From contig JABLTJ010000001.1 of assembly GCA_013166775.1 (NCBI GenBank), positions 160,001 to 224,000 on the forward strand: a DNA stretch of 64,000 nt, read 5' to 3'. Position numbers and translations under genes: made by a program. Shown here in pieces: positions 2,784 through 28,210 of this stretch (position 1 is its first letter; the number at the start of each line of letters is the position of its first letter). Under the pieces are notes generated by a model. That model was not told the DNA's origin, made no database searches, and saw only the letters and a program-made list of their open reading frames with translations. This stretch comes from Promethearchaeati archaeon. Its GTDB lineage: Archaea > Asgardarchaeota > Heimdallarchaeia > Heimdallarchaeales > Heimdallarchaeaceae.

Positions 2784-3440
2784 ATGATAGTTCCAGATAG
2801 CGTCTTAGCAAAAGAATATAGTCTTGTGATGGAAAGAGCTTATGCATTTGAACCTATCGCAGGGGATTTAACTAAATGGAGAGGTTTTGTTCCCGCAATT
2901 TCAGATGAAGGTGAAATTTTAGTAGAAATTGAAATCTATCTAACAGATTCATTTCCAGAAACTCCACCACAAGTGAAAATTATTACCCCTATCACACATC
3001 CAAATTTAACACATGATAATTTTTTAGAAATGAGAATGCTTGCTAGATGGAGATCAAGTTATCACCTTTTTCAAGTGATTGTGGAAACAATTAGGCTATT
3101 TTCGAAAGTTCCTGCAAAAATGATTAAGACAGACGCAGAAACGATTGATCCTCAGAATCAACTTACACCCTTGACAAAACAAAAGGAACAATTGACAATT
3201 ATTCTCGAAGAAAGGAAGAGAGAATTAAACGAAATATCATCAAAAAAACCAAGCCAAGTAAGCAACAAAATATTACAACAAGAGAAACTAAAACATATTG
3301 ACGATGAAATACTGAATGTAGAAAGTGAAATCTTTGCAATAGAACAACAATTTGAAGATTATGAAATTTCTAGTATAGAATTCGCTAAGAAATTCTATAC
3401 TCTTAAGAAAAGATTATTTCTTTTAGAAGCTAAATCATAG
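2784..3440 (+). CDS. UEV (catalytically dead E2) + coiled coil + Vps23/Vps37 steadiness-box domain; ESCRT-I-like protein
   Basis: FPETPPQV..ITPITHPN E2 fold with no Cys in the whole protein; C-terminal ESEIFAIEQQFEDYEISSIEFAKKFYTLKKRLF resembles the Vps37/Vps23 head helices. Confidence 0.85.
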   Translation: MIVPDSVLAKEYSLVMERAYAFEPIAGDLTKWRGFVPAISDEGEILVEIEIYLTDSFPETPPQVKIITPITHPNLTHDNFLEMRMLARWRSSYHLFQVIVETIRLFSKVPAKMIKTDAETIDPQNQLTPLTKQKEQLTIILEERKRELNEISSKKPSQVSNKILQQEKLKHIDDEILNVESEIFAIEQQFEDYEISSIEFAKKFYTLKKRLFLLEAKS

Positions 3441-15729: not shown

Positions 15730-17265
15730 TTGTATTTGATCGCAATGGCGATGCAGAGTAAAAGCCAAACTATTCCATGGGTAGAGAAGTACCGTCCTGA
15801 AACTTACAAGGATTTTGTTGGCAATAAGGAAGAAGTAAGGAAATTGGAAAATTGGCTAAAGACATGGAATCAGCAAAGAAAAAAAGCTGCATTGCTAGCT
15901 GGTCCTGCAGGTGTTGGTAAAACAAGCGTAGTCTACTACCTAATAAAGAAATACAACTATGAATTTGTAGAAGTTAATGCGAGTGATAAGCGAAATAAAA
16001 AAGCAGTAGAAATGCTTGTTGGTAAATCATCTACTGAAGGGACTGTTCTACAAGGTGCAAGAGTTCGTAAACTGATTCTTGTAGATGAAGCTGATGGATT
16101 ATTTGGAAACGCGGATAGGGGTGGAGGTCAAGCACTTGACAGAGCTATAAAAGCTACAAGAACTCCAATTATATGTACTGCAAACGACCCTTCAGCATCG
16201 GTTTTAAAAGCTGCTAAACGAAATATGCTTGTAGTTGATTTTAAAAGTTTAAAGGATGAAGAAATTCTTACTCTTCTCAAATCAATAGAAGAGAAAGAGA
16301 ATTTGAATGTTGGTGATGATATACTTTTAGCAATTACAAAAAATAGCGGAGGAGATGCTCGTGCAGCTATCAACGATTTAGAGGGTGTATCTGTTGAGGG
16401 CATAAAAGGAGTAACATTTTTTTCTCGAAATCAAGAAAAGAGTTTAGATACTGCTTTAATTAATATATTTCAGGCAGATAGTTATCAATCTGCAAAGAGT
16501 GCTGTAGATGATCTTGATGTTGATTACAGAGAATTACTGATGTATGTTTTCGAACATGCTTACAAACAAGCAAGTACAAATACAGAATTATTCAATATGT
16601 ATGAGTTAATTGCTGAAGCAGATATATACCTCTCTCACTGTTATAAGAAACAAGATTGGAAATTTCTCAAATATTTCTTTACGTTTATATCCTCTGTAGG
16701 TCTAGTTAAAAGTTCACCCTTCAAACATACTAAATTTGGCTTTCCTGGATATTGGGCACTAATGGGGAGACTTAGGGGTAAAAATGCAAAAATTAATTCA
16801 ATAGCACAAAAAAGTATAAAATATTTACATTGTTCTCAGAGAATTTTTGTAAAGGAAATTTACCCCTATCTTAAAATTATTTTCAATTCAGATCCCAAGA
16901 TGGCTGGAGGGATTGCAGCATTTCTTCAATTCGATGAAGAGAACATAAGTTTTCTTACAAATGATTCAAGCAAACTCATTAAGGAAATAATGAAACACAA
17001 AGAGAGTGCATATGTTCAGATGGCTGAACAATGGATGACCAAAGCTAAAGAAGCAGACGTAACAGTTTTTGATTTCATTAAACAGAACAAAACAAAGAAA
17101 TTAGAAGTAAAAGATAAAAAGCCATCAGTGAAAGAAAAGAAAAATGAGAAAACTGTTGTTTCAGAAAAAAAAGAAACAGAAGTGAAGAGTGCTCAAATCC
17201 CAAAGAGCAAGAGTAAGAAGAAAAAAAGTTCACAGATATCTTTAGAGAAATTCATGGAAAAATAA
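15730..17265 (+). CDS. rfcL: Replication factor C large subunit
   Basis: PWVEKYRP, GPAGVGKT, EVNASD.R, DEADG, GDARAAINDLE; C-terminal PIP box QISLEKF. Confidence 0.95.
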   Translation: MYLIAMAMQSKSQTIPWVEKYRPETYKDFVGNKEEVRKLENWLKTWNQQRKKAALLAGPAGVGKTSVVYYLIKKYNYEFVEVNASDKRNKKAVEMLVGKSSTEGTVLQGARVRKLILVDEADGLFGNADRGGGQALDRAIKATRTPIICTANDPSASVLKAAKRNMLVVDFKSLKDEEILTLLKSIEEKENLNVGDDILLAITKNSGGDARAAINDLEGVSVEGIKGVTFFSRNQEKSLDTALINIFQADSYQSAKSAVDDLDVDYRELLMYVFEHAYKQASTNTELFNMYELIAEADIYLSHCYKKQDWKFLKYFFTFISSVGLVKSSPFKHTKFGFPGYWALMGRLRGKNAKINSIAQKSIKYLHCSQRIFVKEIYPYLKIIFNSDPKMAGGIAAFLQFDEENISFLTNDSSKLIKEIMKHKESAYVQMAEQWMTKAKEADVTVFDFIKQNKTKKLEVKDKKPSVKEKKNEKTVVSEKKETEVKSAQIPKSKSKKKKSSQISLEKFMEK

Positions 17266-18316: not shown

Positions 18317-20569
18317 GTGAAAAAAATGTCTTTTATTGAAAGATTACAATTAAATCCTGAAGAAAAACAAGTTTACCAACTTCTTTTAGGTGGAGGACAA
18401 TTAACTACTTTTGAAATAACGCAGTTTAGCAAGTTACATTTTTCAAAGGTAAAGGTTGCATTAGATTCTCTTCTGAATAAAGGTGCAGTTGGTGCTTCAG
18501 AAGGATATGTGAAAAAATACTACGTGAAAATCCCATTGGACTACTTGGGAGCAACAAGCGATCAACTAAGTGAGAATGTTAAAAGCACTCTTGGAAAGAC
18601 AACATCTTTTCTACAAGAAAAGAAAGGAACATTTAATCAATTGAAAGATAATCTATCTGTTAGCTTAAATGAATCAGTATCGAGAAAAGAAGCAGAATTA
18701 GATCAGAAACTAACACACACATCTTCTTCAATTAAAACCTTAAACCAGCAACAAAAAGAAGATATTAGTCAGAAAACAGGAGATTTTTCAACCAAAATAC
18801 TCTCTGATCAAGATAATCATCGAAGAAACGTTCAAACAACATTGCAGAGTGTATTTGCAGACAGCCTAAATAGCTTGAATGAATCTAAAGCTTCTATCGA
18901 TTCTTCTGTTTCTAATATTAAAGCAAAAAACGAGGAGAATCTTACTACATTCACTACAGAGATAGAGGAAAATTCTCAAGCATCCATTAACAAAATATCA
19001 GCAACTGCACAGGTAGTAAAACCGAAATTTGATGAAATGAATCAACAGTATCTAAATGACATAGATTCAACAATCGCACAAATTAAACAAAACATAGATA
19101 CTACAAAAATGGATGTAAGAGCATTCAACAGAAGTCAAACTGAGAAGTATGTTGGATATTCCACTGAAATAACTAGGGATACTGAACAAACAATAGAAGG
19201 AATTTCAGAAACAGTTTCAAGTTCTCTTACTGAATTAAACAATTCCCTTGATATGGTTTTGAACAACAAAGTAGAAGATATTTCTCTTCAAATTAAGGAA
19301 TCTCTCTCCGCTTTAAACGAGAAAGTATCACAAATTAAAATTAGTTTATTAGAAGAGCTAATGCAGCAAAAAAACCAAGCAATTTCAAGTTCAGTTTCTC
19401 AAATCAGAGAAAGTATGAACTTAAAATTCACTGATTTAGGAAACAAAGAACAAAATCAGAGGAACAATATAGTTAGTGAAAGAGATATATTCATTCAAAA
19501 ACTAGATGCAAAATATACTACTGCAATTAATGAATACAATGAAAAAATAAATGAAGTCAAAGAGACAGCAATTACTCGATTCAGTGGATTTGAGGAGAAT
19601 TTAATAGCACAAATTACTGCATCAACAGAAGAGATTGTAAACAGTATACGAGCTCAATTAGTCAAATTCAAAGAATTATCGACTCAACTAAATACAACAC
19701 TTATTCAAGATCTTGATGCAGAATCGTCATCTTTGAAAGAGAATTGGGGAGAAATATCACAAAGATTAGATTTTCTCTCTCAAGAAACTGAAACAAAGCT
19801 TAATGAAAAATATAATGAATCTAAAAGTCTACTTCAATCAACCATTTCTGAGGTTGTTTCTGGATTAAACAATCATCTTCAAAAAACAATAGAATCTGCG
19901 ATAAACATTTCGAGAGATGCAATTGATAGTTCAAAAAGCGGAATACGAGAGAGTAAGGAGCTTGTCTCTGGTAAGTTGACTGAGGAAGTTGACTCTTCTG
20001 TTAAGTTTATTGAAGCTTCAGAAAGAAAATTAACAGATACAGCTAACTATCTAATAAGTGCTACAATGAAACTAAAAAACGATTTTAGAACCTTAGAAGC
20101 CACATCAAGTGAAACGCAAATTCCTCCCGTTCAAACAACTTCAATTGTAGGATTAGAAGCTGTTTTGGATCACTTGTCTAGAATTGTAAAAGATACAAAG
20201 AGAGGAGTAACTATTATGGTACCTAAAATTGAATATATTCCAACAGAATCTATAAAGCAGCTTCCAGCTACAGCTAAAGTCACTATAATAACTAGTTTAG
20301 ATGAAGAAATGGATAGAGATTGGATAAATACTATAACAGATGTTCAAGCTAATGTGGAATTAAGAAAACTAAGGGATACAGGAACAGGTGCTGAAATGCC
20401 TCGTTTCATTGGTGTCGAACGAGAAAATGAAGAAGTTCTGATTGCTGCTCAAGATGAAGCAACGAATGAAGTTGTTGGTATTCTTAGTAGATCAACATAT
20501 TTCGCAAAATTAGTATCATACATTGTGATTTCTGATTTCGGAAGAGGAAGATCTGTCCAAATAAAATAG
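18317..20569 (+). CDS. TrmB-type wHTH + long 11-mer-repeat helical region + TrmB-like C-terminal domain
   Basis: LQLNPEEKQVYQLLL..GQLT..EI.....L....V...L..L..KG.V; ~530 aa of helical sequence almost free of Pro; C-terminal GLEAVLDHL...TKRGVTIMVP...VELRK. Confidence 0.8.
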   Translation: MKKMSFIERLQLNPEEKQVYQLLLGGGQLTTFEITQFSKLHFSKVKVALDSLLNKGAVGASEGYVKKYYVKIPLDYLGATSDQLSENVKSTLGKTTSFLQEKKGTFNQLKDNLSVSLNESVSRKEAELDQKLTHTSSSIKTLNQQQKEDISQKTGDFSTKILSDQDNHRRNVQTTLQSVFADSLNSLNESKASIDSSVSNIKAKNEENLTTFTTEIEENSQASINKISATAQVVKPKFDEMNQQYLNDIDSTIAQIKQNIDTTKMDVRAFNRSQTEKYVGYSTEITRDTEQTIEGISETVSSSLTELNNSLDMVLNNKVEDISLQIKESLSALNEKVSQIKISLLEELMQQKNQAISSSVSQIRESMNLKFTDLGNKEQNQRNNIVSERDIFIQKLDAKYTTAINEYNEKINEVKETAITRFSGFEENLIAQITASTEEIVNSIRAQLVKFKELSTQLNTTLIQDLDAESSSLKENWGEISQRLDFLSQETETKLNEKYNESKSLLQSTISEVVSGLNNHLQKTIESAINISRDAIDSSKSGIRESKELVSGKLTEEVDSSVKFIEASERKLTDTANYLISATMKLKNDFRTLEATSSETQIPPVQTTSIVGLEAVLDHLSRIVKDTKRGVTIMVPKIEYIPTESIKQLPATAKVTIITSLDEEMDRDWINTITDVQANVELRKLRDTGTGAEMPRFIGVERENEEVLIAAQDEATNEVVGILSRSTYFAKLVSYIVISDFGRGRSVQIK

Positions 20570-20681: not shown

Positions 20682-20858
20682 ATGCCAACAGTTGTAAATG
20701 CTGAATGTTGTACTGCTTGTGAGGCTTGTATAGATATCTGTCCTGAAAATGTTTATGAACTAGTCAAAGATATTTCCGTACCAGTTAGAAAAGAAGAATG
20801 TACTGATTGTGGTCTTTGCATTGACGAATGTCCAAGTGAATGTATAGACTTTGAGTAA
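20682..20858 (+). CDS. 2x[4Fe-4S] ferredoxin (58 aa, missed by ORF track)
   Basis: MPTVVNAECCTACEACIDICPENVYELVKDISVPVRKEECTDCGLCIDECPSECIDFE*: two CxxCxxCxxxCP motifs; AGGAG upstream. Confidence 0.95.
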   Translation: MPTVVNAECCTACEACIDICPENVYELVKDISVPVRKEECTDCGLCIDECPSECIDFE

Positions 20859-20981: not shown

Positions 20982-23957
20982 ATGACAATGGCAAACTTAG
21001 CAGGTGTATATATTAAAACTCTTTCAAGTTCTAATAGTGACAATCCTCGCTCAACAATTCTAGCTACAATCAAGAAAGAAAATGTTGTGATAAATCTATG
21101 GTCGCCTTGGCATGATATAGGTGAATATATACAACCTTTCACATCTTTTAGAGTTTTTAACGCAGAAAAAAAAGAGAAGGATGATGCTATTTTTTATTCA
21201 GTTGGTTCGAAATCAATTTTCATAGTAGATTCTGATATCTTGATTAATGCAACTGCTATAAATAGTGTGTCTTTTTGTCCTCGAAGTTACTATTTAAATG
21301 AAATTGTGGGTGAATTACCCTCTCCTTACGTAGCTATAAGGGGATCAATTGTTCATGATTGTTTGAATTCTGCTATAGTAAGTAAATCCAGACCATCAGA
21401 GGAGCTTTCGGCTGTACTAGATGCGTTTTCACTACAATATGAAAATATTGGATATACAAAAGAAGCTGTTTATCAAGATGTTCGAGAAATGGCTGAATGT
21501 CTTGATCCTTTTGTTGAGAATTTGAAAGGTCAAACTATACCTGAAATATTGTTTCTATCCCCCTTTTATGGAATTAGGGGAAGAATAGATATACTACATA
21601 ATGACCATATTTTTGAATTAAAAACAGCAAAACTAACAGAAGATAAGGAAATACGTTTTTCAGATCTACTCCAAGTAACAGCGTATCGTTATGGTTTGGA
21701 AAATTTTACTGAGCAAACTAAACCAAATGAGGGGACAGTAATCTATGTGGGTACAAAAAAAGTTGTAGAAAAGAGTGCTGCACCAAATTGGGGTTTGTTA
21801 AGATATGCAATGATTCAAAGAAACACCGCATACAGAGTTTCTTATTTAGGCTATGAACCTAATATTCTCCCACCCAAAGATAAGAATAAATGCAGAAATT
21901 GCTTTGTGAAACACTATTGTGCAATTGTGTGTGCAGGTTTAAACCAAGAACGCAATTGTTCTACATGTCATCATGAATCATATTGCACAAAAAAAACATT
22001 GCCGAAGTCTCATCAGGACTATTTCAACAAATATACACGTTGGGTAAGAGAGGAGAAAAATGAATCTCGTAGGAATTTCTCTGATTTGTGGAAACTCAAA
22101 GTTGAACAAAGAGTTGCTAAAGGTAAATCAATTGATAATTTAGTTTTGGAAAATGAAACTCAAGAAATAGGACATTCTCGTTTACTATTTTCATGCAATA
22201 ATCAGTCAGAATTGCGTGAGGGAGATATTGTTGTTCTTAGTCAAGGTGATATTCTCAAGGGATACATAGTGACAGGAGTGGTGTCTTCCATAAGCGGTTC
22301 TTCTATTGAAATTATTCTTCGTTCAATGTCAGAAAAGATTACAGTTGTGGATCAGTATTCAATTGACGTTGGTTTCAGAAGACAACAAAGAGGTCTTTTC
22401 AATCTAGTATTTCGGAAAAACAAGTACAAGGAATATGTAATTGAAGAAAAACCTCCTGATATAAAACATGCGAAAGGGAATTACATCTCCAATAACCAAA
22501 TTCAGAATCAAGCAATTGAAAGAATATTGGGGACTCAAAATTATTGTCTTATTCAAGGACCAGCGGGAACAGGGAAAACCTATGTAATTGCAAAAGCAGC
22601 TATTACTCTTGCAAACAAAGGTGAAAAAGTATTACTTGCTGCTTTTACAAATAGAGCGGTTGATAATATTTGCAAATATTTGCTGGAAAATGGATATAAT
22701 GGATTTGTAAGGCTTGGTGAAACTCACTCTATTCAATCAGAAATCCGCAACTTTACTCTGAAGGCATATAAAGAAAAGAACGTGGATAGATCCATAACAA
22801 AGATTCTTGAGGATATTCCAATTATAGTATCGACAACTTCCACAATTTCAAATCCTATTTTTGAGAAGATGGGTATTCAAACTGTAATTATCGATGAAGC
22901 CAGTCAAATGACTGAAACAACAGTTCTATCTGCACTGATTGAAGGAGATAGATTTGTTCTTGTTGGTGATCATAAACAACTCCCACCCGTTATTCAAAAT
23001 CCAAAGGTATTACAAGAAGGATTGGGGATTTCAATATTTGAAAGATTAGCAAACGCGTATTCTGGAGATATACATCTTCTGACGAGACAATTCAGAATGA
23101 ATGAAAAATTAATTGAATTTTCAAACAACGAATTTTATGATGGAAAATTGGAATCCTTTGATGAAGGGATTAGTTCACAATCTCTATCAAATTTAACTAA
23201 TTTCAAAGAGAAATTTGAAACTCTCAAAAATGCTGAAATCTACAATCCAGAAAATCCTTTAGTTTTCCTTCCAACTAAAGGTGTTTTTGTACATGATAAA
23301 AAACTCAACAAGGAAGAAGCAAGAATAATAAGTGAAGTTGTTCCAAATCTTCAGAAATTAGGATTGGAGAAAGAACAACTTGGTATAATATGTCCATACA
23401 GAGGTCAAGTTAGTGAGATTAGAAGAAATCTACCAACTGCTATTACAGTGGACACTGTAGATCGATTCCAAGGAAGTGACCGTGAAATTATAATTATCTC
23501 ATTAACAGAATCCGAATTTCATGGTAACAAAGGTTTTGCTGATAATCGTAGGTTAAATGTTGCCATTACTCGAGCAAAGAAGAAACTAATAGTTGTTGGA
23601 GATCCAGACATCAGCAAAGGAACTCTAGGTAATTACATGAATTATCTTCAAAATAATGCTAAAATAATTGGAACAATTAAACAAAAAGTTGAGTCAAAGA
23701 AACCAATTATGCAGGAAACAATAATAATTGCAGACAGAATTCTCAAAAAAGCGGAAGAAGTTGACATAGCAAAGTTGAAAGATAAAGAAACCTCAAATAA
23801 ATGTATCATCTGTCTAGAACCTGTTTATGAGAATGGGATAGAATGTCCTCTCTGTGAGCACATCTTTCATTTCAACCATCTGACAACCTGGATTAAAGAA
23901 AAAGAACGATGTCCTTTTTGTAAAACGAAATTAACTCTACTTTCTCCTTCTTCTTGA
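20982..23957 (+). CDS. dna2: Dna2-like Fe-S nuclease/SF1B helicase fused to a C-terminal RING-H2-like domain
   Basis: CPR; GRIDIL..FELKT; QVTAY; CRNCFVKHYC; QGPAGTGKT; DEASQ; GDHKQLPP; TVDRFQG; RRLNVAITRAKK; CIIC...CEHIFHFNH...W...CPFC. Confidence 0.9.
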   Translation: MTMANLAGVYIKTLSSSNSDNPRSTILATIKKENVVINLWSPWHDIGEYIQPFTSFRVFNAEKKEKDDAIFYSVGSKSIFIVDSDILINATAINSVSFCPRSYYLNEIVGELPSPYVAIRGSIVHDCLNSAIVSKSRPSEELSAVLDAFSLQYENIGYTKEAVYQDVREMAECLDPFVENLKGQTIPEILFLSPFYGIRGRIDILHNDHIFELKTAKLTEDKEIRFSDLLQVTAYRYGLENFTEQTKPNEGTVIYVGTKKVVEKSAAPNWGLLRYAMIQRNTAYRVSYLGYEPNILPPKDKNKCRNCFVKHYCAIVCAGLNQERNCSTCHHESYCTKKTLPKSHQDYFNKYTRWVREEKNESRRNFSDLWKLKVEQRVAKGKSIDNLVLENETQEIGHSRLLFSCNNQSELREGDIVVLSQGDILKGYIVTGVVSSISGSSIEIILRSMSEKITVVDQYSIDVGFRRQQRGLFNLVFRKNKYKEYVIEEKPPDIKHAKGNYISNNQIQNQAIERILGTQNYCLIQGPAGTGKTYVIAKAAITLANKGEKVLLAAFTNRAVDNICKYLLENGYNGFVRLGETHSIQSEIRNFTLKAYKEKNVDRSITKILEDIPIIVSTTSTISNPIFEKMGIQTVIIDEASQMTETTVLSALIEGDRFVLVGDHKQLPPVIQNPKVLQEGLGISIFERLANAYSGDIHLLTRQFRMNEKLIEFSNNEFYDGKLESFDEGISSQSLSNLTNFKEKFETLKNAEIYNPENPLVFLPTKGVFVHDKKLNKEEARIISEVVPNLQKLGLEKEQLGIICPYRGQVSEIRRNLPTAITVDTVDRFQGSDREIIIISLTESEFHGNKGFADNRRLNVAITRAKKKLIVVGDPDISKGTLGNYMNYLQNNAKIIGTIKQKVESKKPIMQETIIIADRILKKAEEVDIAKLKDKETSNKCIICLEPVYENGIECPLCEHIFHFNHLTTWIKEKERCPFCKTKLTLLSPSS

Positions 23958-26776: not shown

Positions 26777-28210
26777 ATGACTGATGAACATGTTATAAGC
26801 TTAGTAAGCGCTGGAATTGATGTAGGAACTACAACTTCTCATTTAATTTTCTCGAAGCTTAAACTAGAGAAGGTTTTTACTCCCAGAGGTGTGAAATTCG
26901 AAGTAACAGAACGAGAAATTCTCTATAAAGGAAATATTATCTTGACTCCTCTGCTTGATGGACAAGTTATAAATTATTTAAAATTGGTTGAATTTCTGAA
27001 ACAAGAATACGAAGCAGCAAACATTTCAATAGAAGATATCGATACTGGAGCTGTTATTATAACAGGAGAAAGTGCAAAAAAGGAGAATGCAGAAGAATTA
27101 GTTAAAGCTTTAGCACATAAAGCAGGGAAGTTTGTGTGTGCAGCTGCTGGTCCTAATTTTGAGTCTGTTATCGCAGCTATGGGATCTGGGGCAGTAAATT
27201 ATTCAAAAAACGAAAAGAAAACAGTTGTGAACATAGATGTGGGTGGAGGAACTAGTAACATAGCTATTGTAAGGGACGGGGATATAGTTGATGCTGCTTG
27301 CGTTAATGTTGGCGGAAGATTATTAGCTTTTGATCGGGAAAACAAGATAATAAGAATAGAATCCCCTATAAGAATATTCGAAGATGATATAGGAGTTAAG
27401 TTTGATTATGGATTAAAACTCTCGGAAAATCAAAAAAGAATCCTAGCTAGAAAACTCGCAGAGTGCTTGTTTGAAGTGTTGAATCAGAAAATTCATTCTA
27501 ATTCTGCAAAAAAGCTTCTAATGACAAATCCATTAGATTATGAGGGGAAGATAGATGAATTTATGTTTTCAGGAGGAGTAGCAGAATATATTTACAAAAA
27601 AACTGATCATGATTACAAGGATTTAGGTAATTATCTTAGTGATGAAATTCAGCGAATAATTAGAGAAACCGGAATAGTGATTCATGAACCAACAGAATTG
27701 ATCCGAGCAACAGTCATTGGAGCTGGGCAGTATACACTACAAGTATCTGGTGTTACTACTCATATTTCAGATCCAGATGTTTTACCTTTGCATAATTTGC
27801 CAGTAATAGAACCCAAAATTAACACCAAGAATATTACTGAAAATAATATTACAAATTCTATTCTAAAGAGTCTTGATCTATTTGATATTGAAGAAGGAGA
27901 TGAAATTGTTGCTCTCTTATTCAAAGGTGCTATTGGTGGTTCTTACGCAGGATTAACTACTTTTACTAAAGGAGTAGCCAATGCTTTGCAAAATACAATA
28001 AGAAAAGAAAAACCTGTTATCATGGTTTTTGATAGAGATGTGGGAAATTCTGTTGGAAATGTTATGATGAGAGAAACGACTGCAACAAAGAATATAATTT
28101 CAATAGATGAAATTTTAGTTGAAGAGGGAGATTTCATTGATATTGATATACCAAAAGCTGAAGGACAAGTAGTTCCTGTTGTTATAAAATCCCTGATTTT
28201 TTCAAACTAG
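26777..28210 (+). CDS. eutA: Ethanolamine ammonia-lyase reactivating factor EutA
   Basis: SAGIDVGTTTSHLIFS, TGAVIITGESAKKENA, AGKFV.A.AGP..ES, NIDVGGGTSN, IRATVIGAG, VPVVIKSL.F. Confidence 0.92.
   Translation: MTDEHVISLVSAGIDVGTTTSHLIFSKLKLEKVFTPRGVKFEVTEREILYKGNIILTPLLDGQVINYLKLVEFLKQEYEAANISIEDIDTGAVIITGESAKKENAEELVKALAHKAGKFVCAAAGPNFESVIAAMGSGAVNYSKNEKKTVVNIDVGGGTSNIAIVRDGDIVDAACVNVGGRLLAFDRENKIIRIESPIRIFEDDIGVKFDYGLKLSENQKRILARKLAECLFEVLNQKIHSNSAKKLLMTNPLDYEGKIDEFMFSGGVAEYIYKKTDHDYKDLGNYLSDEIQRIIRETGIVIHEPTELIRATVIGAGQYTLQVSGVTTHISDPDVLPLHNLPVIEPKINTKNITENNITNSILKSLDLFDIEEGDEIVALLFKGAIGGSYAGLTTFTKGVANALQNTIRKEKPVIMVFDRDVGNSVGNVMMRETTATKNIISIDEILVEEGDFIDIDIPKAEGQVVPVVIKSLIFSN

Follow-up and report, generated by a model that had tools for sequence, protein, structure and literature searches.

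The window analysed here is a stretch of 64,000 nucleotides (nt) from contig JABLTJ010000001.1 of a Heimdallarchaeaceae genome. It contains a single open reading frame (ORF) that encodes a Dna2-type nuclease, a helicase and a C-terminal RING domain, referred to in the following as Dna2-RING (Table 1). Residue numbers are those of the 991-residue protein and coordinates those of the window. With a probability of roughly 0.58, which applies jointly to this assignment and to the mechanism proposed below with the RING as ubiquitin ligase (E3), the gene encodes the Dna2 orthologue of Heimdallarchaeia, to whose C-terminus a flexible linker and a RING domain are appended. A search with the Pfam Dna2 profile revealed one Dna2 locus in the genome, and orthologues are publicly annotated as 'AAA domain-containing protein' or 'Dna2'.

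Dna2 is an enzyme of 5′ flap and DNA-end processing, which combines an Fe-S PD-(D/E)XK nuclease with a 5′–3′ helicase of superfamily 1B (SF1B). Its defining features are carried by the N-terminal 880 residues of Dna2-RING. The Pfam family Dna2 (PF08696) matches residues 33–181 with 49.5 bits (cut-off 22.4), PDDEXK_1 matches residues 89–313, and the SF1 helicase domains AAA_11/AAA_12 cover residues 505–875. In an alignment of 21 sequences from across the class Heimdallarchaeia, the nuclease residues D203, E212, K214, Q231 and Y235 are invariant and a RecB-type PD-(D/E)XK active site (D, E-x-K, Q-x3-Y) is present. The same invariance is found for Walker A (G526–T533), Walker B (D638–E639) and residues Q666, R705 and R864 of the helicase. 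Cysteines C304, C307 and C313 are likewise invariant, while C99 is present in 19 of the 21 rows, the remaining two being truncated at the N-terminus; together, C99 ... C304-x2-C307-x5-C313 correspond to a predicted 4Fe-4S cluster motif. From these motifs, nuclease activity on flaps or single-stranded DNA (ssDNA) and 5′–3′ helicase activity are predicted for the archaeal protein.

The best solved relative in a phmmer search is mouse DNA2 (5EAN) at 8.7e-64, compared to 3e-38 for UPF1, with the alignment to mouse DNA2 comprising the helicase half only. Both the mouse enzyme (PDB-IDs: 5EAN, 5EAW, 5EAX) and Dna2-RING place an Fe-S PD-(D/E)XK nuclease in front of an SF1B helicase, and the Cys ... 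C-x2-C-x5-C, D/E-x-K, Q-x3-Y and Walker A/B motifs of eukaryotic Dna2 recur in the archaeal protein. Pfam matches, invariant residues and the similarity to mouse DNA2 thereby bear out the complete Dna2 architecture claimed in a preliminary description of this DNA, which had been made from the sequence alone. However, only about 20 residues follow the helicase match in mouse DNA2, leaving no room for a RING, in agreement with the earlier remark that the well-studied eukaryotic Dna2 proteins lack one, whereas the archaeal protein adds a ~110-residue extension of linker and RING.

A further difference to eukaryotic Dna2 is a second Cys motif, which follows the Fe-S motif in the protein of Heimdallarchaeales. 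It is kept in 17 of the 21 class-wide sequences, being conserved in the Heimdallarchaeaceae (f1) and in two other families of Heimdallarchaeia (f2 and f4); in the four sequences of Hodarchaeales (f5) it is deleted. The last three cysteines repeat the C-x2-C-x5-C spacing of the Fe-S motif, and the motif possibly forms a second metal site; to our knowledge it has no counterpart in eukaryotic Dna2. The middle region between nuclease and helicase matched no Pfam family of its own in a scan of the protein, is 55.6% identical within the family and may represent the barrel-stalk of Dna2/Upf1. Helices in the linker are predicted solely by a low-confidence model (single-sequence AlphaFold of residues 880–991, mean predicted local distance difference test (pLDDT) score 41).

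Table 1. Coordinates of Dna2-RING, its domains, neighbouring genes and the ubiquitin clusters of the genome (window positions unless a contig is given).
Feature	Position	Strand	Remarks
Whole Dna2-RING gene	20982..23957	+	991 aa plus stop; single copy in genome; full-length orthologues in 30/30 same-family genomes
Dna2-type PD-(D/E)XK nuclease domain with 4Fe-4S cysteines	21078..22001	+	residues 33–340; Pfam Dna2 and PDDEXK_1
Extra Cys motif C317-x8-C326-x2-C329-x5-C335	21930..21986	+	directly after Fe-S motif; class-wide alignment
Middle region between nuclease and helicase	22002..22481	+	residues 341–500; conserved block
SF1B (Upf1-like/Dna2) helicase core	22482..23621	+	residues 501–880; AAA_11/AAA_12
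Variable Lys-rich linker	23622..23795	+	residues 881–938; low identity
C4H2C2 RING domain	23796..23933	+	residues 939–984; zf-RING_2, eight invariant ligands
58-aa 2x[4Fe-4S] ferredoxin gene	20682..20858	+	Fer4 families; co-directional, 123 nt upstream of Dna2-RING
218-aa protein with partial UQ_con match	2784–3440	+	
RFC large-subunit/Rad17-like AAA+ clamp-loader gene	15730–17265	+	3.7 kb upstream of Dna2-RING
750-aa protein	18317–20569	+	
EutA-like protein	26777–28210	+	full-length, 473.8 bits
Ubiquitin cluster: E2, JAMM, RING protein, ubiquitin, E1	G000 C102:21191-27506		
Ubiquitin cluster: E2-like segment in 474-aa ORF, E1, ubiquitin	G000 C27:9779-11616		

Conservation of the fused gene in Heimdallarchaeia

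A protein search identified about 30 full-length orthologues of ~990 residues, which share 51–79% identity and originate from independent contigs and several sources. When 399 genomes of the phylum were searched in six frames, full-length matches were obtained in all 30 other f1 genomes, the single f2 genome, 10 of 12 f4 genomes and 11 of 22 f5 genomes; outside these four families, matches were restricted to the level of the helicase. Identity to the window protein amounts to 53–91% inside the family and to about 27–36% in the other three, and the 12 loci of f2, f4 and f5 whose C-termini were read directly all close with the same zinc-finger pattern. Among the f1 genomes are Heimdallarchaeota AB_125 and the complete genomes of Ca. 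Heimdallarchaeum aukensis (CP084166) and H. endolithica (CP084167). Family f5 includes the chromosome CP070760, and most of its records are labelled Hodarchaeota; some submitter labels (Thor-, Promethearchaeota) conflict with the placement by genome taxonomy.

Within the family, the RING is 63.6% identical, the helicase 64.5% and the linker 39.6%; the class-wide values are 41.7%, 46.6% and 17.8%, respectively. Compared to two orthologues of 91% identity, the ratio of nonsynonymous to synonymous substitution rates (dN/dS) is 0.10–0.14 for the helicase, 0.19–0.25 for the linker and 0.07–0.08 for the RING, the last value resting on only 14–15 substitutions. The RING is constrained as strongly as the helicase, and purifying selection acts on the tail.

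The fusion is genuine and has been conserved by vertical descent. The window derives from a metagenome-assembled genome of 115 contigs, which would leave room for an artefact of assembly or gene calling. However, the same uninterrupted ORF recurs in over 50 assemblies that are independent of one another and stem from different studies (50 of them named), including the two complete genomes and the third chromosome-level record, the composition is uniform across the gene within its low-GC stretch, and selection acts on the tail, so that the chance of such an artefact is practically negligible. An assembly chimera, which the preliminary description had named as the finding that would overturn its proposal, is ruled out by the family-wide orthologues and these assemblies, and the Dna2-plus-RING architecture, for which it had suggested a search, recurs in four families of Heimdallarchaeia.

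Very improbable, too, is the notion that the protein is no housekeeping Dna2 but belongs to a mobile system of anti-virus defence, in which it would act as the nuclease-helicase and its RING as effector or sensor. The helicase half matches PLuB (278.9 bits) and, in PADLOC, MkoA of Mokosh (229 bits), but these matches are confined to the helicase part (residues 606–901 for MkoA), and the PLuB score compares to a curated cut-off of 999. Moreover, the gene is single-copy and present in 30 of 30 family genomes, its identity drops from the family to the other three families as given above, a neighbouring ferredoxin gene is conserved within the family, and the flanking genes (an RFC-like clamp-loader subunit, a phosphoribosyltransferase and an ABC ATPase) form no defence island. 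Neither a patchy, horizontally transferred distribution nor a conserved linkage to known defence genes was seen. The defence-gene reading was rejected on the grounds of helicase-level similarity, single copy and family-wide presence.

RING-less Dna2-like proteins are also present in metagenomes (P0034, P0037). In another family of the class, a locus on the minus strand (L034, G090:C13:5000-9000) encodes a PD-(D/E)XK and SF1 helicase protein of ~1157 residues, in which a RING tail is absent and Pfam Dna2 gives no match. This protein is a paralogue, or else a divergent Dna2 that has lost its RING or did not possess one in the first place. A protein search with the class-wide alignment retrieved no further distant Dna2 relatives and no eukaryotic Dna2. 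A tree published in 2025 relates eukaryotic Dna2 to some of the homologues from Asgard archaea (PMC12680538, legend of Extended Data Fig. 5b); the text of this article, which analyses Asgard Dna2, contains neither the word 'RING' nor the word 'ubiquitin'. Full-text searches of the literature yielded no description of the Dna2-RING fusion.

Zinc ligands and predicted fold of the C-terminal tail

In the whole protein, zf-RING_2 matches residues 939–981 with 28.2 bits; on the isolated tail or in the six-frame genome search the score rises to 34.8 bits (cut-off 27.3). The family matches all 39 orthologous tails at E ≤ 0.01. Eight residues are invariant in these tails, namely C941, C944, C955, C958, H963, H966, C977 and C980, giving rise to the conserved pattern C-x2-C-x10-C-x2-C-x4-H-x2-H-x10-C-x2-C (C4H2C2). 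Across the tails the ligand spacing is x2, x8–11, x1–2, x4–5, x2, x6 (in f2) or x10, and x2, which is compatible with a RING. The ligands are invariant across four families although the linkers share only 18% identity, a conservation far beyond chance.

The preliminary description had assigned the tail to a RING-H2 variant. The Cys/His string is present as written and ligand 6 is indeed a His, but H960 is not conserved: the position varies (H, Q, S, Y, N, R, K, T) and holds His in only 15 of 39 tails. While C958, H960, H963 and H966 had been taken as ligands 3 to 6, the invariance of C955 makes C958 the fourth ligand, paired with C955. The tail therefore departs from canonical RING-H2 (C3H2C3, C-x-H-x2-H-x2-C), and since H960 is variable and C955 invariant it represents a C4H2C2 domain, not a RING-H2 with one substitution. 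Given the cross-brace arrangement suggested by the fold match, the best explanation of the first zinc site is C941/C944/H963/H966, and the second would be built by two knuckles, C955-P-x-C958 and C977-P-x-C980.

AlphaFold with a 150-row alignment predicts a ββα RING fold for the tail (mean pLDDT 80.9, core blocks 87–92, 27 residues ≥ 90). Strands 952–954 and 961–963 form a β-hairpin in the model, followed by helix 964–974, which bears H966 and W970. A Foldseek comparison with the PDB placed only E3 domains of the RING/U-box type among the top 50 matches (template modelling (TM) score 0.53–0.76), including RNF165, HRD1, Arkadia, RING1B, gp78, TRAF6, RNF8 and Rad18. An independent search of representative structures with VIA-align likewise had RING/U-box domains throughout its top 50 matches, with Z-scores of 7.3–4.8; these are middling, as expected for a domain of 50 residues, and the informative point is the uniformity of the list.

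Similarity to other zinc fingers is weak. Matches to Prok-RING_1 (PF14446) stay below the cut-off throughout; they occur in 11 of the 39 tails and in several C4H2C2 RING proteins of Asgard archaea, and each tail is matched better by zf-RING_2. PHD-like Pfam matches are limited to zf-HC5HC2H_2 (E 0.006) and to PHDvar_NSD in 4 of 39 tails; in the PHD pattern (C4HC3) ligand 6 is Cys, while the tail has His. No PHD finger appeared among the top 50 structural matches, although absence from such a list does not by itself exclude a PHD fold.

A profile of the tail retrieved 4731 matches at E ≤ 0.001 from 1.84 billion representative proteins. Among the best 149 of these proteins, which contain 224 domains, 114 domains carry the C4H2C2-plus-Trp signature and 45 are classic RING-H2, and the RING is usually found at the C-terminus of the matched proteins. 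The source is named for five clusters, which come from Heimdallarchaeaceae, Hodarchaeales and Freyarchaeota; the annotation is RING finger or E3 ligase protein for four of them and zinc-ribbon protein for the fifth. By sequence, the tail belongs to a large C4H2C2 RING subfamily, the named members of which are all Asgard. A FastTree phylogeny of 150 RING domains leaves 82 of 147 branches open and distributes the Dna2 tails over five groups.

Residues that contact the ubiquitin-conjugating enzyme (E2) in RING domains are largely kept: position 943 is Ile, Val or Leu and W970 is present in 38 of 39 tails each, P978 is found in 35, and Lys or Arg follows the last Cys (position 981) in 34. The Trp typical of E2-binding RINGs, which the preliminary description had pointed out, is hence nearly universal, and its view of the tail as a RING holds given the zf-RING_2 matches, the predicted fold and these contact positions. 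The activity of srfp, a small RING protein of Caldiarchaeum subterraneum, depends on the Ile next to Cys1, on the Trp of the helix and on the basic residue behind the last Cys; the substitutions I30Q, W58A and R69A impair ubiquitylation (PMC5654768). The distances between these three residues are 28 and 11 in srfp and 27 and 11 in Dna2-RING, a positional correspondence rather than an alignment.

Possible role in ubiquitin transfer

The claim that Asgard archaea possess ubiquitin, E1, E2 and RING systems applies to this very genome, which encodes ubiquitin, the ubiquitin-activating enzyme (E1), E2, JAMM and RING proteins. Two ubiquitin genes are present, each with a ThiF-type E1 gene beside it, and UQ_con matches four times. 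One match is a UbcH5-like E2 of 155 residues with YPFKPPKV, the catalytic Cys and a W-TPA loop; a second is the operon E2 that adjoins the JAMM gene. In the coordinates of the genome (G000), the ubiquitins lie at C27:11419-11616 and C102:26182-26343, the E1 genes at C27:10489-11226 and C102:26607-27506, the UbcH5-like E2 at C1:94861-95232, the operon E2 at C102:21191-21664 and the gene of PCNA at C1:10250-10603. Dna2-RING is encoded away from the ubiquitin clusters. Archaeal E1/E2/RING cascades function in vitro (PMC5654768), and an Asgard cascade has been reconstituted (bioRxiv 10.1101/2023.07.25.550441). Sixteen ORFs of the genome match zf-RING_2 (including loci L005-L016, L102 and L103), and the exact C4H2C2 pattern closes 5 of the 12 inspected, the Dna2 gene among them. 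For five other RING proteins of the genome (163–708 residues), a Pfam scan found no domain besides the RING.

A 218-residue protein encoded in the window shows a partial UQ_con match of 40.9 bits, in which HPN is kept and the catalytic Cys is absent, followed by a long predicted helical tail. Judged by these features it looks like an inactive E2 of the UEV type, perhaps a relative of the UEV-Vps23 proteins described from Asgard archaea (bioRxiv 10.1101/2023.07.25.550441).

In the proposed mechanism, the nuclease-helicase body would bind ssDNA, flaps or resected ends, while the tethered RING would recruit one of the genome's own UBC-type E2 enzymes in its ubiquitin-loaded form. Ubiquitin transfer, which the RING could then stimulate, would be directed to Dna2 itself or to proteins present at this DNA structure. 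We infer E2 binding, ligase activity and the substrates, as well as any dependence on DNA. A complex prediction for the UbcH5-like E2 and the RING tail gave a median of 0.31 against a mark of 0.32 (controls 0.00–0.02) and is not used as evidence for or against pairing.

Several observations weigh against this mechanism. The ligand pattern differs from canonical C3HC4 and C3H2C3. Tails of Hodarchaeales have Val in place of P978 and Gln in place of K981, and the f2 tail is without the Trp; the E2-activating surface is therefore not uniform. The low dN/dS of the RING derives from few substitutions, a motif scan of the orthologues detected no conserved PCNA-interaction motif (PIP-box), and the gene neighbourhood points to no substrate. 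Pairing of the RING with any E2 is a prediction from sequence features.

The replaced Pro and Lys positions, the f2 tail and the non-canonical ligand set would also suit a non-catalytic zinc module, which positions or regulates Dna2 by dimerisation, protein docking or nucleic-acid binding and has no E3 activity. The structural matches Bmi1/PCGF, Nse1 and Prp19, which act mainly as scaffolds or heterodimer partners, fit this idea as well. However, the conservation of I/V/L943 and W970 is that expected of an E2-binding groove, the same C4H2C2 type stands at the C-terminal end of many Asgard proteins that are otherwise unrelated, a layout typical of modular E3 enzymes, and related archaeal RINGs are active E3s (PMC5654768). 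A non-catalytic tail is consequently doubtful, though it deserves serious consideration.

If the RING is an active E3, its chief target might be Dna2 itself, with auto-ubiquitylation keeping a dangerous nuclease in check through either its amount or its activity. Auto-ubiquitylation is common among RING E3s, the linker is rich in Lys, the PIP-box scan revealed no substrate-recruiting motif, and the abundance of eukaryotic DNA2 is controlled by proteasomal degradation (PMC12280927). The present data, however, fit trans-ubiquitylation equally, and the idea presupposes degradative ubiquitin signalling in Asgard archaea; we regard self-targeting as the chief function as unlikely.

Eukaryotes steer replication stress and DNA repair largely through ubiquitin, and Heimdallarchaeia are the archaeal class usually placed closest to them. 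It is tentatively proposed that Dna2-RING is a DNA-structure-guided ubiquitin ligase, which marks replisome or repair proteins, or itself, on flaps, gaps and resected ends, and that such control predates eukaryotes, which later split the activities into Dna2 and separate RING E3s. The fusion suggests that the link between ubiquitin tagging and DNA maintenance is older than eukaryotes, and on evolutionary grounds it might be a precursor of ubiquitin-based DNA-damage signalling, as the preliminary description had put forward. Since the sole Dna2 of a Heimdall-group archaeon bears a RING and the fusion is kept across the class, the question of the origin of ubiquitin-dependent repair becomes directly testable. 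Moreover, among Asgard RING proteins Dna2-RING is one of the rare cases in which the biochemical function of the partner domain can be recognised, and therefore a good entry point to the first physiological substrates of the archaeal ubiquitin system. New here are the C4H2C2 ligand set, the assignment to a RING subfamily with only Asgard proteins among its named members, the constraint figures per domain, the second Cys motif specific to Heimdallarchaeales and the ferredoxin neighbour conserved at family level.

Among known systems, srfp and the RING E3 of the Helarchaeial operon are archaeal RINGs which work with their cognate E1 and E2, and srfp shares with Dna2-RING an extra Cys (C3B) near ligands 3/4 (PMC5654768). 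In contrast to these small stand-alone proteins of ubiquitin operons, the RING described here is fused to a DNA enzyme of 880 residues. Rad5/HLTF/SHPRH and Rad18 likewise combine a DNA-binding or translocase module with a RING in one polypeptide and ubiquitylate a replisome protein (PMC11871451), and the Rad18 RING is one of the best structural matches (2y43: Z 6.5, root-mean-square deviation 2.0, 61 residues; VIA-align). However, none of these proteins is related in sequence to the Dna2 body, and Rad5/HLTF are Snf2-type ATPases of superfamily 2 with the RING embedded in the ATPase and without nuclease. ZNFX1 belongs to the SF1 Upf1-like/Dna2 helicase superfamily (PDB-ID: 9q9z, 2.2e-18) and is reported, in two preprints (bioRxiv 10.1101/2025.10.14.682297 and 10.1101/2025.09.05.674436), to be an E3 ligase as well; unlike Dna2-RING it acts on RNA in animal innate immunity, carries NFX1-type zinc fingers and has no nuclease domain.

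Genes surrounding Dna2-RING

In 24 of 27 Heimdallarchaeaceae loci, a near-identical copy of the ferredoxin gene precedes the orthologue by at most 1.2 kb, once on the opposite strand; at 20 loci of other families, no such gene was found within this distance upstream. The ferredoxin is a possible companion of Dna2-RING; the linkage may also simply reflect conserved gene order among close relatives.

Further upstream in the window lies the gene of an AAA+ clamp loader resembling the RFC large subunit and Rad17. A EutA-like protein is encoded downstream, and no ethanolamine-utilisation genes were found among the ten neighbours scanned. The 750-residue protein encoded ahead of the ferredoxin gene starts with a TrmB-type winged helix, followed by a long helical middle part that weakly matches apolipoprotein repeats.

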